A stretch of 64,000 nucleotides of DNA from an uncultured Acidobacteriota bacterium (GTDB lineage: Bacteria > Acidobacteriota > Vicinamibacteria > Vicinamibacterales > Fen-181), in the NCBI GenBank assembly GCA_963724775.1, contig CAVRWB010000016.1, positions 28,815 through 92,814 of the forward strand, given 5' to 3'. Made by a program: the position numbers and the translations under genes. Under the pieces are notes generated by a model. It worked only from the letters and a program-made list of their open reading frames with translations. It was not told the origin of the DNA and searched no databases. This document shows positions 8,101 to 45,258 of the stretch, piece after piece. Within the stretch, counting starts at the first letter, position 1, and each line of letters opens with the position of its first letter.

Positions 8101-8180
8101 GCGTCGAGCGTCAAGCGTCGAGCGTCAAGCGTCGGGCGCCCAACGGTCAACGCTCAACGGTCAACGGTCAACGCCCAACA
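8101..8180. repeat. Heptamer tandem repeats (GTCRAGC)x5 followed by (GTCAACG)x6 between the convergent azurin and metY genes
   Basis: gcgtcgagcgtcaagcgtcgagcgtcaagcgtcgggc ... caacggtcaacgctcaacggtcaacggtcaacgcccaac. The metY stop and last codons (ALTVDR*) are encoded by the repeat. Confidence 0.7.
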
Positions 8181-9485
8181 ACGCCCTCCAGAACCTGCTG
8201 ATTCGATGATGTCAGCGACATCTTCTGTTCCAATGGAAAGCCGGATGAAGTCGTCCGTCACGCCGCTGGCCGCCCGCTCCTCGGGCGACAGCTGCTGATG
8301 TGTTGTCGAGGCCGGGTGGATGATCAGGCTCTTCGCATCGCCGATGTTCGCCAGGTGGCTGAAGAGGCGAACCGCGTCGATCACCCGCTTGCCAGCCTCG
8401 AGCGCCGCCGCGGATGCCGAACCCGACGATGGCGCCGGCGCCGTCCGGCAGGTAGCGCCTGGCGCGTGCGTAGTCGGGGTGGCCGGGCAGCAGCGGGTAG
8501 TTCACCCAGGCCACGTGCGGGTTCGCCGTGCAGCCACTCCGCGACCGCGAGCGCGTTGCGGCAGTGCGCCTCGAATGCGAAGCGGCAGCGTCTCGAGCCC
8601 CTGGACGAAGAGGAACGCGTTGAACGGCGACAGGCACGGCCCGAGGTCGCGCAGGAGTTGAACGCGCGCCTTGGCGATGAACGCCGCGGTCAGGCGCTGG
8701 CCGGCGTTATCGATTCTGAAGGCGTCCGCAAACACGAGGCCGTGATACGACGGGTCGGGTTCGGTGAACTCCGGGAAGCGTCCGTTCGCCCAGTCGAAGC
8801 GGCCCGAGTCCACGACCGCGCCGCCGATCGAGGTGCCGTGGCCGCCGATGAACTTCGTCAGCGAGTAGACGACGATGTCCGCGCCGTGATCGAAGGGCCT
8901 GAAGATCAACGGCGAGACGGTGTTGTCGACGATGAAGGGCAGGCGGTGCGGCATGGGCGACCTCGGCAATCGCCTCGAAGTCGTCGACGTTGTTGCGCGG
9001 GTTGCCGATCGACTCCGTGTAGACCAGGCGCGTGTTGTCGTCGATGGCGGCGGCGACATTCGTCGGGATCCGACGAGTCGACGAACCGCATCGTCGATGC
9101 CCAGGCGGGCGAGCGTGTAGTGGAACAGGTTGTACGTGCCGCCGTAGAGGCTGCTCGTCGAGACGATGTTCTGCCCCGCGCGGGCGAGGTTCAGGACCGC
9201 CGTCGTGATGGCCGCCTGGCCGGAGGCGAACGCGAGCGCGCCGACGCCGCCGTCGAGCTGCGCGAGCCGCTCCTCGAGCACCGCGGTCGTGGGATTCCCG
9301 ATGCGCGTGTAGATGTGGCCGGCCTGCTGCAGCGCGAACAGGCTGGCGGCGTGCTCGGTCGATTCGAACACGTACGAGGTGGTCTGGTAAATCGGCACGG
9401 CCCTCGCGCCCGTCGCGCTGTCGGGAGCATGACCGCCGTGCAACGCGATCGTCGCCGGCCGGTAGGTTGGTGTGTGACTCATCGA
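8154..9485 (-). CDS. metY: O-acetylhomoserine sulfhydrylase (MetY/Cys-Met PLP family), multiple apparent frameshifts
   Basis: N-terminal [17 protein letters not shown]...IYQTTSYVF and C-terminal [21 protein letters not shown] are characteristic. The middle ([31 protein letters not shown]...[15 protein letters not shown]) is spread over three frames. Confidence 0.7.
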
Positions 9486-10555
9486 AGGCCTCCAGTCTGG
9501 GTTCCGGCAATGGCCAGGAGATCGGATACGACAGCCACTCCTGTCGCATCGCCGCCCGCGCCGCGCCCGGCGTAGAGCGTGTCGCCGCCGTACTCGCCGG
9601 TGACGAGGACCGCGTTTTCGCAGCCTCGGACGCGGGCGAGCGGTGAGTCGAGGGGCACGAGTTCCGGGCCAACCGACGCGCGGACCGCTTTCAGTTGTCC
9701 GTATCCGAATTCCCGTTTTCCGTTTTCCGTCTTCGGTTTCCCGTTTCGGCCGTCCTGGTCGCGTCCGGCCGGGACGACCGTTGCCCGCGACACCTGCCTG
9801 ATGGTGGCGCCGCGCGCGTGCGCGGCGTCGAAATCCTGCAGGGTGACGCCGGAGATCGACCCGCACGCAATCTCGGACGATGCGATGGCGGTGTCGAAGC
9901 CCACCGAGCAGAGGATCGAGAGCTTGGCCCGCGCGTCGAACCCTTCCACGTCCGCCGCCGGGTCGGCCTCGGCGTAGCCGAGCGCCTGCGCCTCCGCCAG
10001 GGCGTCGTCAAAGGCGATACCGGCCTCTTCCATCCGGGTGAGGATGTAGTTGCACGTGCCGTTGATGACGCCGGTGATGGCGGTGAGCCGGTCGCCCGCC
10101 AGGCCGAGACGGACGGCGTCGAGGACGGGGACGCCGCCAGCCACGGAGGCGCCGAAGCGGAACTGCCGTCGCTGTCGTGCGGCGAGGGCGTTGAATCGGC
10201 GCCCCTCGTCAGCGACGAGCTGCTTGTTCGCCGTGACGACCGACTTTCCCGCCAGCAGGGCGCGGGTGATCCACTCGCGGGCCGGCGAGACGCCGCCGAC
10301 CAACTCGACGAGGACGTCGATGTCCGGCGCGAGGAGATCGTCGAAGCGGGCGGTCCACTCGACGTCGGCGCGCAGCCAGGCCGGCCGCGGCTTCGACTCG
10401 CTGCGCGCGCAGACCCGCACGAGGCGGACGGCCTCGTCTTCGCGCCGCTCGAGGATCCGAGCCACCGCGGTGCCGACCGTCCCGAAACCCACGAGGCCCA
10501 CGCGCACGGCGGGCCGCACCGGCCAGACCGATCGCAGGGCGGATGTGCGTGGCAT
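9479..10555 (-). CDS. hom: Homoserine dehydrogenase with in-frame simple-repeat insertion
   Basis: [13 protein letters not shown]-binding motif, ...TANK..., and a C-terminal ACT-like region. The stop is 1 bp before the metY start, so they form an operon. Residues [18 protein letters not shown] are encoded by the CCGTTTTCCGTTTTCCG repeat at 9713-9750. Confidence 0.8.
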
Positions 10556-42556: not shown

Positions 42557-42809
42557 GTCCCCATGCTCCTTTGTAGTACTGGCCGCGCCTGGGGGGCGAT
42601 CCCGGTGCCGGCCGGTTGAGCTGGTCGCAAGTTTCATGCCTGTGCCGTATCCAGGCAATCTCGGGGAAAAACGCCGTGAAAACGCGGATGGCTCCCGGCC
42701 GCGCCTGTCACAATCGATATCAGCTGTGCAAAAAGGTATGCCCGACGCAAAGGGCCCGTCGGCATGCGCCAGCGGGCCCCTTTTCCGTTCTCCGTCTTCC
42801 GTTCTCCGT

Positions 42810-45258
42810 TTACAGCGTCAGCTTCGCCAGGTTGCCGCCCAGGCGCGGGCCGCCCATGCCGCCCATGGCCGGCATCTGCCCCGGCTGTGGCGCTGTCACG
42901 CCCACCATCGAGTAGATCTCCTCCTTCGTCCAGCCGCCCTTGACGAGGGAGAGGTACATCTGCTGCTTCGCCGCATCCACTGTCTTCTGGCGCGGGGTCT
43001 GCGCGACGTCACCCATGGGCGACCGAACGACCCGCTCCGTCGTCGTCAGCACGATATTGCCTGAACCGCCGAGGGCCTTCTTGAGATCGATGAGCCGCGT
43101 CGCCATCGCCTGCGGCGCGCTTGCTTCGAACTCCACGGACAGCACGACGTTCTTCTCGACGAGCTTCTTGCCGAGCGCCTCGCTGGGCACGGTCGCCATG
43201 CTGGACACGATGAAGCCCTTCTTCGCGTTCTCGAGCAGGTCATCGAGCAGCTTCGCGGAGGGGTTGTGGAACTGCAAGACGAGGCCTGCCGATTCGAACG
43301 CCTTCAACGCCGCCTTCCCGCGGTCGGTCAGGCCGGTGGCCGTGAACCAGGTGCCGTCCGGGCTGAAGACTTCGGTGCGGCCGATGTTCATCAACTTGGC
43401 CGCCACGTCGATCAGCCCGATGTTGCCGTTGAATGCGCTCAGGTCCACGCTGAGGCCGAAGCGCGGCCCCTGCGGACCGCCCATCTGGATCGCGCCGGAC
43501 GGCCCGATCATGATCGCGCCCGACGAACCGCCGGCGGTGGCGAGGTTCAGCGGGGTCATGCGCATGCCGTTGTAGAGGTGCAGGCGGTCGGTCACCACGA
43601 GGTTCACCTGGGTCTCGTTCGCGACATTCACGATTCCCTGGAGCACGAACTGGCCGTTCTTGCGCAGCATCTCGGCGTCGATCTTGGCCGGGTCGTCGCC
43701 GGCGTCATGGTAATCCGGGTGCCCGATGCCACCCGCGGTCATGAGGGCCAGCGACTCGATGCCCTGCTCGATGAAGGCGGAGTAGTCGCTGCCGCCAGGG
43801 CCCGCGGTAGACGTCTCGATGTTCTTGACGACTTCCGGGTCCTGGTTCTTCATGATGACGTCCCAGATCGCCGGGAAGTTGAGGCCGCCGGGGGCGCCGA
43901 TCCGATCGCCGAGGCCCACCATGTCGTTGTTGAAGTTGGTGACGATGTTGTCCAACTTCACGCCGTCCGTCGGGTGCTTCGACCAGGTACTCGGACCCGA
44001 TGAGGCCCATCTCCTCGGCCGCCCAGAGCGCGAAGTAGATCGTCCGCTTCGGCTTGATGGTGCCGGCGTTGGTCGCGACCAGGCGCGCCATCTCCATGAC
44101 CGTCGCGGCGCCCGACGCGTTGTCGTCCGCGCCGTTCATGACGACGCCGTTGCTCACCCCGACGTGATCGAGGTGACCGCCGACGACGATGACCTGCGCC
44201 TTGAGCTTCGGGTCGGTGCCTTCCACCTTGCCGACCACGTTGTGCGAGACGTTGTTCTTCAGCTTGTCGCTGAAGAAGGTCGTCGTCTTGTAGCCGCTCA
44301 CCCGGCCTTTGACCCCGGTCGCCACCGAGTGCGCCTTGCCGTCGCGGATGTCGCGGCGCCACTGGTCCATGCGCGCGGTGAAGCCGCGAGGCGACTCCTG
44401 CGCGTCGCGGAACATCGCGTGCCGGAAGACGCGCTCGCTGACGTCCGTCATGACGAGGAACGGCCGCGTGTAGGGTTCCGCTGGCGCCTGGGCGCCGGCC
44501 ATCATGGCCATGATCTGCGCCTGTGACAGTGCCTGTGGGGCCGCCATCGGGTTGGGCGGCGCGAGCTTCTCTGGTGCGAACAGGAGGATGGCCGCGGCTC
44601 CCTTGTCGTAGGCGGTCTTGATCTTCGCGGCGTCCTTCGACTCGTCGGCCCACGCTTCGTTGTTCTTCGGCGCATCAACGGTCGCTCCGAACATTCCGCG
44701 GGCGGCCGGCGCGTCCTTCGGCGATCCCTTGAAGACGAGCACGATCTTGCCCTTCACGTCCACGCCGGCGTATTCATCGAGCCCCTTGGCGGGTGCCGAG
44801 ATGCCGTAGCCGGCGAAGACGATGTCGGCATCAGCGGCGGCGCCGGCCGTCGACGCGGGGCTCAAGGTGAAGTCGCTGTCGTTGATGTAGAACGCGCGGC
44901 CGTCGACGGACAGCGCGGGGATGCCGGTCGTCCACGGCTGGCCGCTCCCTCGGCCGACCACCGGCACGTCCTGCAGGAAGCCCCCGCTGTCGCCCGCCGG
45001 CTTCAGGCCCCACTCCTTGAACTTCGCGGCGGCCCATTCCGCGGTCTTCTCGTACCCGGGAGTCAGTGAGCGGCGGCCTTCCTTGTCGTCGGAGGCCATG
45101 TAGTCGATGTAGCCCTTGATGACGGTGCCGTCCACGCGGATCGGCGTCGCGCCGCCGACGGCCGGCTTGCCTTTCGACTGCGCGCCGGCGCCGGCCGACC
45201 ACGCGAGAGCCAGGGCGGCGCTGACGGCGAGGGTGCGCCAGCAGGTTCGAGCCTTCAT
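42810..45258 (-). CDS. Peptidase M28 family (PA domain) with large C-terminal extension; apparent frameshift near 43960
   Basis: Signal peptide. M28 zinc-ligand motifs (GGHLDHVG, GADDNASGAATVME, AAEEMGLIGS, then DMVG...GSDYSAF in the second frame). Confidence 0.65.

Follow-up and report, generated by a model that had tools for sequence, protein, structure and literature searches.

Why should so many of the spacers between the genes of a soil acidobacterium contain head-to-tail copies of units that are only 7 to 9 nucleotides long? This question is raised by a 64,000-nucleotide stretch of contig CAVRWB010000016.1 from an uncultured member of the Vicinamibacterales (assembly GCA_963724775.1; 'the window' hereafter denotes this whole 64-kb stretch). 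A first-pass annotation made from the sequence alone had listed many of these repeats, described their density as unusual for a bacterial chromosome, and proposed an uncharacterised repeat-generating process, perhaps slippage hot-spots, a family resembling repetitive extragenic palindromic (REP) sequences and bacterial interspersed mosaic elements (BIME), or phase-variation loci. The explanation towards which we lean is that they are slippage-driven, satellite-like arrays with units of 7, then 9, then 8 nucleotides, among which the inverted pairs that can form hairpins probably act as terminators or protect RNA 3' ends.

Arrays exceed chance and recur in independent assemblies

Tandem arrays were called over the whole window, whose GC content is 69%, with Tandem Repeats Finder (TRF), and a stringent set was defined by a period of 7-9, at least 3.5 copies and a score of at least 40. 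The window holds 13 such arrays, whereas none appears in any of the 20 dinucleotide-preserving shuffles that served as the null model. The arrays are dense at 8-43 kb, and the segment at 43-64 kb contains one GC-rich array only. By period (7, 8 and 9), the arrays of the window number 10, 2 and 3, heptamers being the most abundant class. TRF returned arrays at every coordinate named in the first-pass annotation, and the cores quoted there (AACGGAG, GTCAAC, TTGACGA, GAGAAC and AAATCGC) are concentrated at these loci. All of the loci listed are thus genuine, although those at 18987-19072, 21176-21205/21232-21261 and 27878-27921 had been omitted.

The Lhr helicase of the window is most similar to proteins from acidobacterial MAGs (metagenome-assembled genomes), the majority of them titled Vicinamibacterales or Vicinamibacteria. 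The window was compared with related loci of about 20 kb each. Two European Nucleotide Archive (ENA) long-read contigs (loci L001/L002, L083/L084 and L208/L209), found through exact-protein look-ups, are ~94-97% identical to the window, and an independent NCBI metagenome-assembled genome (MAG), GCA_024640805.1 (L207), is 92-95% identical to it. Arrays occupy the same sites in L083, L084, L207 and L208/L209. Furthermore, Vicinamibacterales assemblies made from short reads (contig names k141/k127) carry 0.165 arrays per kb. Because short-read assemblies show equal density and independent assemblies carry the arrays, these are not a long-read artefact. The arrays are likewise not confined to this window, as they are found across the related loci.

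A survey of periods 7-9, in which loci were grouped purely by record title, indicates how array density is distributed among acidobacteria. The window has 0.23 arrays per kb (64 kb). The values are 0.158 per kb in 12 loci titled Vicinamibacter (240 kb) and 0.154 per kb in 16 loci titled only Acidobacteriota or Acidobacteria (273 kb), and only 0.015 per kb in 50 loci titled Acidobacteriaceae, Terriglobales or with named genera (904 kb). The earlier remark on unusual density is therefore borne out both against chance (13 versus 0) and against another acidobacterial class, which the window's lineage exceeds about tenfold. The period spectrum is also sharply limited: among 514 kb of related loci there are 55, 12 and 22 arrays with periods 7, 8 and 9, respectively, and no more than 3 for each of periods 5, 6, 10 and 11. 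Across the surveyed loci of about 20 kb, such arrays are typical of the whole Vicinamibacteria-like acidobacterial lineage.

Arrays lie mostly between genes and often at stop codons

To place the arrays relative to genes, we relied on a manual map of 31 genes in the window, built from Pfam assignments and start/stop contexts. The repeat loci are as follows.

1578-1606: 8-mer array of the GAAATCGC type, 3.6 copies, weak (TRF); divergent spacer flanked by a minus-strand HEAT-repeat gene (start 1489) and a plus-strand amidohydrolase gene.
8101-8138: heptamer array GCGTCGA/GCGTCAA, ~5 copies (TRF); begins 7 nt past the TGA stop of a copper-binding protein gene (7636..8094, plus strand).
8137-8179: heptamer array TCAACGG/TCAACGC, ~6 copies; entered by the minus-strand metY frame (EDVADII...), which ends at a TGA of the array.
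9685-9747: nine degenerate heptamers, RAAACGG on the minus strand, inside hom (9479..10555, minus strand).
10782-10869: degenerate array of the 9-mer GTCRACGGA with 9.8 copies; separates the divergent genes hom (start 10555) and esterase (start ~10930).
12613-12794: array of the 9-mer TYGACTCCG, which is the 10782 unit reverse-complemented, with 20.2 copies; takes up the entire convergent spacer (12607-12793) from the esterase stop (12606) to the nei stop (12794).
13633-13672: array of heptamers GAACGGA/GAACTGA with 5.7 copies; separates two minus-strand genes, lhr (stop 13731) and nei (start 13621).
18476-18512: array of the heptamer GATTGAC with 5.3 copies; separates a 141-aa gene (stop 18546) from lhr (start 18468), each on the minus strand.
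18987-19072: heptamer array GCAGTGG/GCAGTAG, 12.4 copies; divergent spacer between starts at 18971 (minus strand) and 19096 (plus strand).
21176-21205 and 21232-21261: inverted heptamers GGCTTAG (4.3 copies) and AGCCTTA (~4 copies), a hairpin in a convergent spacer; the stops of both genes (21235, plus strand; 21253, minus strand) lie within the right arm.
27878-27921: degenerate array of the GGCTTAG/AAGCC family, resembling the 21160 locus; fills the spacer between two minus-strand genes.
34513-34564: heptamer array GAACGGA/GAACGTA/GAACTGA, 7.4 copies; convergent spacer, with the TAG stop of a sigma-54 activator (34525-34527) inside the array.
37339-37358 and 37551-37570: inverted 8-mers AGAGACAC and CTCTGTGC, 17 nt past the DNA ligase stop (37322).
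37613-37664: 8-mer array CAAATCGC, 6.5 copies; ends 7 nt ahead of a pyruvate-formate-lyase-like gene (ATG at 37672).
41558-41604 and 41640-41677: inverted heptamers AGAACGT and their complement, a hairpin; these fill the spacer (41548-41680) between two minus-strand genes, from the stop at 41681 to the start at 41547.
42784-42810: array with 3.9 copies of a heptamer that reads GAACGGA on the minus strand; abuts the TAA stop of an M28 peptidase gene (42810..43961, minus strand) and is followed by a separate GC-rich hairpin.

Every type of spacer is represented. Arrays lie in divergent spacers at 1578, 10782 and 18987, in convergent spacers at 8101-8179, 12613-12794, 21176-21261 and 34513, and in co-directional spacers at 13633, 18476, 37339-37664, 41558-41677 and 42784. 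For about 10 of the 31 genes, an array begins within 10 nt of the stop codon or includes it, and stops in or at arrays belong to the sigma-54 activator, the genes ending at 21235 and 21253, nei, the M28 peptidase and the metY frame. Since 7 is not a multiple of 3, a heptamer that contains a stop codon provides stops in all three frames. Most arrays of the window follow stops; several abut start codons, as at 37613 (7 nt before the ATG), at the nei start and at the start at 41547.

Two gene ends need comment. The first-pass annotation had regarded 8101-8180 as encoding the metY C-terminus, which holds for the second array (8137-8179), entered by the frame, but not for the first, which the frame does not reach. 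The window lacks ~340 bp (at 8195-8205; compare L083 10640-11000) that are present in L083/L084, where they encode a normal metY C-terminus and, it appears, what is left of a gene further downstream; without these 340 bp, the frame runs into the array and ends there. At the other site, the longest esterase open reading frame (ORF), which covers 10774-10929 ahead of the most likely start, begins in the 9-mer array and would add (VDG/VNG)n. The signal peptide starts at residue 53 of this frame (~10930), so the 10782 array is noncoding and automatic callers probably over-extend the esterase N-terminus. Gene calls give the protein 610 aa in L084 but 558 aa in L207.

Two cruder tests were applied to arrays generally. 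Open frames span 53% of arrays versus 88% of random segments, a comparison that carries little information at a GC content (69%) where spurious open frames abound. A noisy flank classifier based on GC content at third codon positions (GC3) calls both flanks noncoding-like for 42% of arrays versus 21% of random positions. Single arrays are probably mostly filler.

Inverted pairs form hairpins at gene 3' ends

The first-pass annotation had noticed that the repeats often occur as inverted pairs, and inversion is in fact the rule among neighbours: of 42 neighbouring array pairs separated by no more than 300 bp, 17 are inverted copies of one unit and only 1 is a direct copy. The hairpins that these pairs can form are far more stable than those of shuffled sequences. 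Minimum free energies (MFE) are -57.5 kcal/mol (z -5.1) for 21176-21261, -52 kcal/mol (z -4.7) for 41558-41677 and -201.6 kcal/mol (z -7.6) for the fold at 37323-37671, and eight hairpin loci from other genomes have z values of -2.9 to -14.4. Owing to the palindrome GTCGAC in its unit, the 12613 array of 9-mers can pair with itself (z -2.7). Single purine-rich arrays, on the other side of the scale, are less structured than their shuffles (34513, z +2.1; 18987, z +2.7).

The hairpin arms are near-perfect, and both strands fold about equally well with few G-U pairs, which fits an origin at the DNA level. Strand-specific selection on the RNA hairpins was considered and finds no support in these same features. 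A coding strand could be assigned to both flanks of 12 hairpin loci; the flanking genes converge at 7 of these and are co-directional at 5, with no divergent case, so that all 12 face the 3' end of a gene. This arrangement fits a recruitment of the inverted pairs, which is probable, as terminators that in many cases work in both directions or as RNA 3'-end protectors.

Arrays turn over faster than the genes around them

Copy number is also where closely related strains differ. The 12613 array has 20 copies of its 9-mer in the window, 28 in L084, ~9 in L083 and ~6 in L207, and L208 and L209 deviate by about one unit in the left arm of the hairpin at 41558. The 8101 array has ~9 copies in L083/L084, and L084 has an additional inverted partner upstream of the 1578 array. 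Short degenerate arrays (hom 9685, 10782 and 13633) are of equal length in the window, L083 and L084, the 10782 array being identical in L083/L084 and the 13633 array being retained in L083, L084 and L207. Thus the comparison of copy numbers across assemblies that the first-pass annotation recommended reveals differences at 12613 and 41558, and its idea of slippage hot-spots is upheld for long clean arrays, whose copy number varies.

The more distant strain L207 exhibits replacement as well as length change. Its counterpart of the 10782 array consists of three 9-mers followed by (GTCGA)5, and upstream of lhr an array of 8-mers, GATTTTTC/GATTTGGC, takes the place of the window's GATTGAC array. 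Exclusively in L207, an array (GACGATT)4.5 of the family seen at 18476 in the window stands beside the esterase stop. The GCAGTGG array (18987) is mostly gone, and the lhr-nei spacer is 61 nt shorter, with its array running from stop codon to start codon. Because the coding DNA around these sites stays 92-95% identical, the arrays turn over far faster than the genes.

For the longest arrays, the precise number of copies calls for caution, because the window and the ENA contigs hold frameshift-split genes. In the window, metY (8212-9866), lhr (13731-18542) and the amidohydrolase gene (1606-3651) are each broken over two or three frames, and split genes such as metY and lhr are present in the ENA contigs as well. 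In the independent MAG L207, lhr is one gene of 1584 aa. Indel errors of long-read assembly, rather than pseudogene formation, are the most likely cause of these splits.

One array lies within a gene

Arrays had also been reported to lie sometimes inside reading frames, and this is true of gene tails and of one insertion. The hom array is 63 nt long and forms an in-frame insertion of 21 codons in a loop of homoserine dehydrogenase. Residues 255-290 of Hom align with only 10 residues of PDB 3mtj, consistent with an insertion in a surface loop. The nearest Hom relatives, which are 70-77% identical, have no such insertion. Within the species-level cluster it recurs at equal length, with several substitutions, in other members that include a JGI protein and an NCBI MAG. 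Judged from these alignments, the hom insertion looks like the birth of an array within a gene.

Unit families recur within genomes and are swapped between them

TRF calls and unit clustering, both suggested by the first-pass annotation and run on the window and on related loci, show that families recur at several loci. An ACGGAGA-type heptamer occurs at five spacers and in the hom insertion, a 9-mer at 10782 and 12613, an AAATCGC 8-mer at 1578 and 37613, and the GGCTTAG type at 21176 and 27878; the repeat units include (GAACGGA)n, (GTTCTCC)n and (GTCGACGGA)n. Altogether, one 64-kb window accommodates three periods and six or more unit families that are unrelated to one another. In an all-against-all BLAST comparison of array-bearing spacers, similarity between loci is confined to the arrays. 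The recurrence of families is a property of single genomes: when 54 heptamer arrays from related genomes were compared in pairs more than 500 bp apart, 17% of pairs within a genome had at most one mismatch versus 4.4% between genomes (permutation p = 0.001).

Orthologous spacers hold different units. The lhr-nei spacer carries GAACTGA-type units in the window, TTGTGCA in L004 and GGTTCACTA in L005, and array hairpins stand immediately past the lhr stop in L012 and L033. Conservation of the 9-mer units across genera was considered and dropped, as the alignment shares just 'CGTT'.

Units with a GAAC core reach beyond this lineage. A metagenome scan for (GAACNNA) at 3.5 or more copies gave at least 120 contigs, with GC contents of 31-72% among the matches listed. 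Many contigs of 55-60% GC among the matches listed have the order stop, (AGTTCTC)4-5, spacer, (ACTGAGA)4-5, start, and in Terriglobales contigs GAACTGA-type units lie directly upstream of starts, for example those of dnaJ and rsmE. Across 134 arrays with a GAAC core among the matches listed, an ORF start follows 26% of forward arrays versus 18% of reverse arrays, a weak bias. The module formed by a stop, (AGTTCTC)n, a spacer of 20-120 nt, (ACTGAGA)n and a start was noted in the Terriglobales-like loci L163, L146, L157, L192, L202, L204, L152 and L129. In L163, modules flank dnaJ on both sides (3757-3846 and 4982-5285), and the arms have 28 versus 4.7 copies; the DnaJ protein of L163 shares 90% identity with proteins whose names give Acidobacteriia or Terriglobales.

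Relation to known repeat systems

The class closest to these arrays is that of long simple-sequence repeats (LSSRs) with units of 5-11 nt. As summarised in PMC4679880, LSSRs are arrays longer than chance would give that a minority of free-living species carry (Mrazek, Guo & Shah 2007 PNAS), heptanucleotides are the most abundant, most are intergenic with multiple-of-three units tolerated in genes, and slippage has been proposed as their source. The window arrays resemble LSSRs, in the features covered by that summary, in exceeding chance (head-to-tail units in the 1-11-nt range, 13 arrays versus 0 in the 20 shuffles), in being heptamer-rich and mostly intergenic, and in being slippage-like, with length polymorphism between strains at 12613 and 41558 and stability of the short degenerate arrays. 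On this basis, the 'uncharacterised process' of the first-pass annotation was too strong a term, at least so far as that summary describes heptamer-dominated LSSRs. Two differences deserve mention. The groups named in the summary (PMC4679880) are Burkholderia, cyanobacteria, actinobacteria and Xanthomonas, without Acidobacteriota, and the description as summarised there includes neither inverted, locus-specific 3'-end hairpins nor unit-family swapping, both of which are features of the window arrays.

Heptamer direct repeats of the sequence TAACTGA are known from marine Beggiatoaceae, some cyanobacteria and Bacteroidetes (MacGregor 2015, PMC4679880). In forward orientation these provide stops in three frames and overlap the upstream stop, and in reverse orientation they occur inside reading frames (PMC4679880). 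The window arrays share with them the heptamers in spacers, the three-frame stop logic, the overlap with upstream stops, the stop-free copies inside reading frames and, at some loci such as 37613, the abutment to starts. However, TAACTGA repeats have one dominant unit in 2-6 copies, lie mostly just upstream of starts and include only one indirect repeat (PMC4679880), whereas the window has many families, three periods, up to 20 copies and inverted pairs, mainly after stops. The window unit GAACTGA is one base away from TAACTGA, and no window unit is TAACTGA itself.

Among the short tandemly repeated repetitive (STRR) sequences of heterocystous cyanobacteria, the units are CCCCAGT, TTGGTCA and CAACAGT. 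Like the window arrays, the cyanobacterial STRR and Nostoc heptamers form several genome-specific families dispersed in spacers near promoters and starts, but they belong to another phylum with other unit sequences and low-GC genomes. REP units are imperfect palindromes of 20-40 nt that share one conserved sequence and are spread by REP-associated tyrosine transposases (RAYTs). The likeness of REP/BIME elements to the window arrays is functional only (extragenic position after stops, inverted hairpin pairs, proposed roles in termination or mRNA stabilisation), since the arms in the window are tandem 7-9-mers that vary by locus and, except for the GTCGAC core of the 9-mer, are not palindromic. 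With nothing shared beyond the arrays, the suggestion of a REP/BIME-like family does not hold. Contingency loci usually have units of 1-5 nt in 5' coding regions or core promoters of surface-antigen genes. They share with the window arrays short tandem units that change number by slippage, but the window arrays stand in spacers of housekeeping genes of a soil bacterium.

A literature search, which was not exhaustive, found no description of such repeats for Acidobacteria or Vicinamibacter. What appears to be new here is a known repeat class in a lineage for which that search gave no description of it, together with regular inverted-array hairpins at 3' ends and rapid swapping of unit families.

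A slippage-driven origin and its alternatives

If the arrays are satellite-like, slipped-strand mispairing and unequal exchange would create, extend and homogenise them. Template switching in quasi-palindromes, a process established in E. coli, could transfer changes from arm to arm and so keep the arms matched, which would explain how near-perfect arms come to be built of locus-specific units. Rare ectopic template switching or gene conversion might then plant a unit family in other spacers. Arrays would persist because spacers tolerate them, and heptamers bearing a stop would cap the upstream reading frame wherever they land, making them safe neighbours for upstream genes. Orientations without stops can be read through, of which hom and the tail of the gene with its stop at 21235 are examples.

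Several observations weigh against this explanation. Slippage alone explains neither the strong preference for period 7 nor the recurrence of unit families at separate spacers, and it leaves the GAACTGA-like units of Terriglobales contigs unaccounted for. The hairpins are without U-tracts, and single arrays also occupy divergent spacers, where termination is senseless. The orientation statistics rest on a crude GC3 frame call at 12 loci, and the template-switching steps are ones that we infer rather than demonstrate. Finally, the comparison includes three assemblies that consist of noisy long-read contigs, and part of the copy-number differences may hence be assembly error; L207 and the short-read data argue against such error as a general explanation of these differences.

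A possible, though less probable, alternative is that the arrays are bound by a protein, for instance an RNA binder of the cold-shock, S1 or CsrA-like type or a regulator that binds DNA, and together constitute a genome-wide transcriptional or post-transcriptional network. Such a role has been proposed for the TAACTGA repeats of Beggiatoaceae and the heptamers of Nostoc. Genome-specific families do recur at many spacers, several arrays abut starts (37613 at 7 nt, nei and 41547), and the unstructured purine-rich single arrays (z +2.1 and +2.7) are as expected of single-stranded platforms. GAACTGA-type units upstream of the Terriglobales dnaJ and rsmE starts, one base from TAACTGA (PMC4679880), point in the same direction, as does the altered reporter expression that followed deletion of heptamer repeats in Nostoc (bioRxiv 10.1101/2022.06.06.494920). 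It is difficult, however, to reconcile conserved recognition with orthologous spacers that carry unrelated units, both in related genera and in strains that are ~93% identical, or with six or more unrelated families and three periods in one 64-kb window. Arrays also occur in every spacer type and in both orientations, and the ORF-start bias of the 134 GAAC-core arrays among the matches listed (26% versus 18%) is slight.

More speculative, and in our judgment unlikely, is a dedicated system of the Acidobacteriota that builds 'array-armed hairpins' and spreads them between genes. Arms of locus-specific heptamers would cap the reading frame and terminate or insulate transcription, and a nucleic-acid-binding or template-switching enzyme would copy and recognise these cassettes. 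If true, such a system would account for the strict period of 7 and the matched arms, for the movement of families between spacers in ~93% identical strains, and for the GAAC-core units that are common to two acidobacterial classes.

It is quite improbable that the arrays are the visible part of a non-autonomous element of the miniature inverted-repeat transposable element (MITE) or REPIN type, spread by a transposase or RAYT and with inverted arrays as its termini. One family does appear at a non-orthologous spacer in the sister strain L207, inverted pairs predominate, and hom contains a 63-nt insertion. Nevertheless, spacer comparison reveals no shared termini, internal sequence or target duplications, every hairpin has its own unit and loop, and arm lengths vary freely (28 versus 4.7 copies in L163). 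A MITE-like element was accordingly rejected as a candidate, given that the all-against-all BLAST similarity lies only within arrays.

Phase variation, in which repeat number would switch genes on or off at contingency loci, had also been proposed in the first-pass annotation and is very improbable. Copy number does vary at some start-adjacent arrays, such as the arm at the ATG at 41547. Yet 11 of the 12 loci lie outside reading frames and the neighbours are housekeeping genes (hom, metY, nei, lhr and DNA ligase), the sole internal array is degenerate, in frame and of the same length in all strains, and many arrays follow stops in convergent spacers, where no switch is possible. That the arrays are artefacts of indel-prone long-read assembly is scarcely credible: the frameshift-split metY and lhr of the window and the ENA contigs reveal that indel errors exist, but identical sites carry arrays in L083, L084, L207 and L208/L209, the k141/k127 assemblies have equal density, and the hom insertion is also in the JGI protein and the NCBI MAG.

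Other features of the window

Several additional observations were made at or near the arrays. Between the inverted 8-mers at 37339 and 37551 lies a very GC-rich, multi-branched hairpin of 190 nt (37360-37550). An Rfam 15 scan of the whole window at gathering scores, this hairpin included, gave no match. The (GCAGTGG)n array at 18987-19072, in a divergent promoter spacer, has evenly spaced GGG runs, because of which a G-quadruplex could form there; arrays with G-runs also occur in other loci (L012 at 12300, L026 and L043). Five of the ten GAATTC sites in the window (1611, 9707, 18462, 18532 and 18976) are within 15 bp of an array boundary or in the hom insertion, a proximity that may reflect only the AT-richer composition of spacers.

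A separate REP-like palindrome, GACAGGCG-NNN-CGCCTGTC followed by CTAC, has five exact occurrences (45-63 and 22084-22269), and a sixth listed match at 39661 has two mismatches; if as many as two mismatches are allowed, 0.16 matches are expected by chance. Four of the exact copies are clustered in a TRF array of period 36 that lies between the start of an FHA-domain gene and the stop of the next gene. This palindrome family is distinct from the tandem arrays. Exact-protein look-ups of the FHA protein and of the 141-aa protein gave no match. A tandem duplication of 25-27 nt, GGCGTGGCGCAAAGCTCCAGCCTTG, is present in two copies at 6527-6614, in a divergent spacer beside a gene starting at 6505.

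Implications

Vicinamibacteria rank with the most abundant bacteria of soils, and their genetics is almost unstudied. If arrays form a large share of their intergenic DNA, gene calling is affected through stops, C-terminal tails and false N-termini such as the VDG/VNG extension of the esterase. Assembly and strain typing are affected as well, and the arrays offer ready-made variable-number tandem repeat (VNTR) markers. Models of termination are affected for a high-GC lineage without obvious U-tract terminators, for which inverted-array hairpins provide a concrete and testable case of terminator-like stems that grow by paired tandem duplication. Furthermore, the arrays broaden the question of why heptamers dominate among bacterial micro-satellites.

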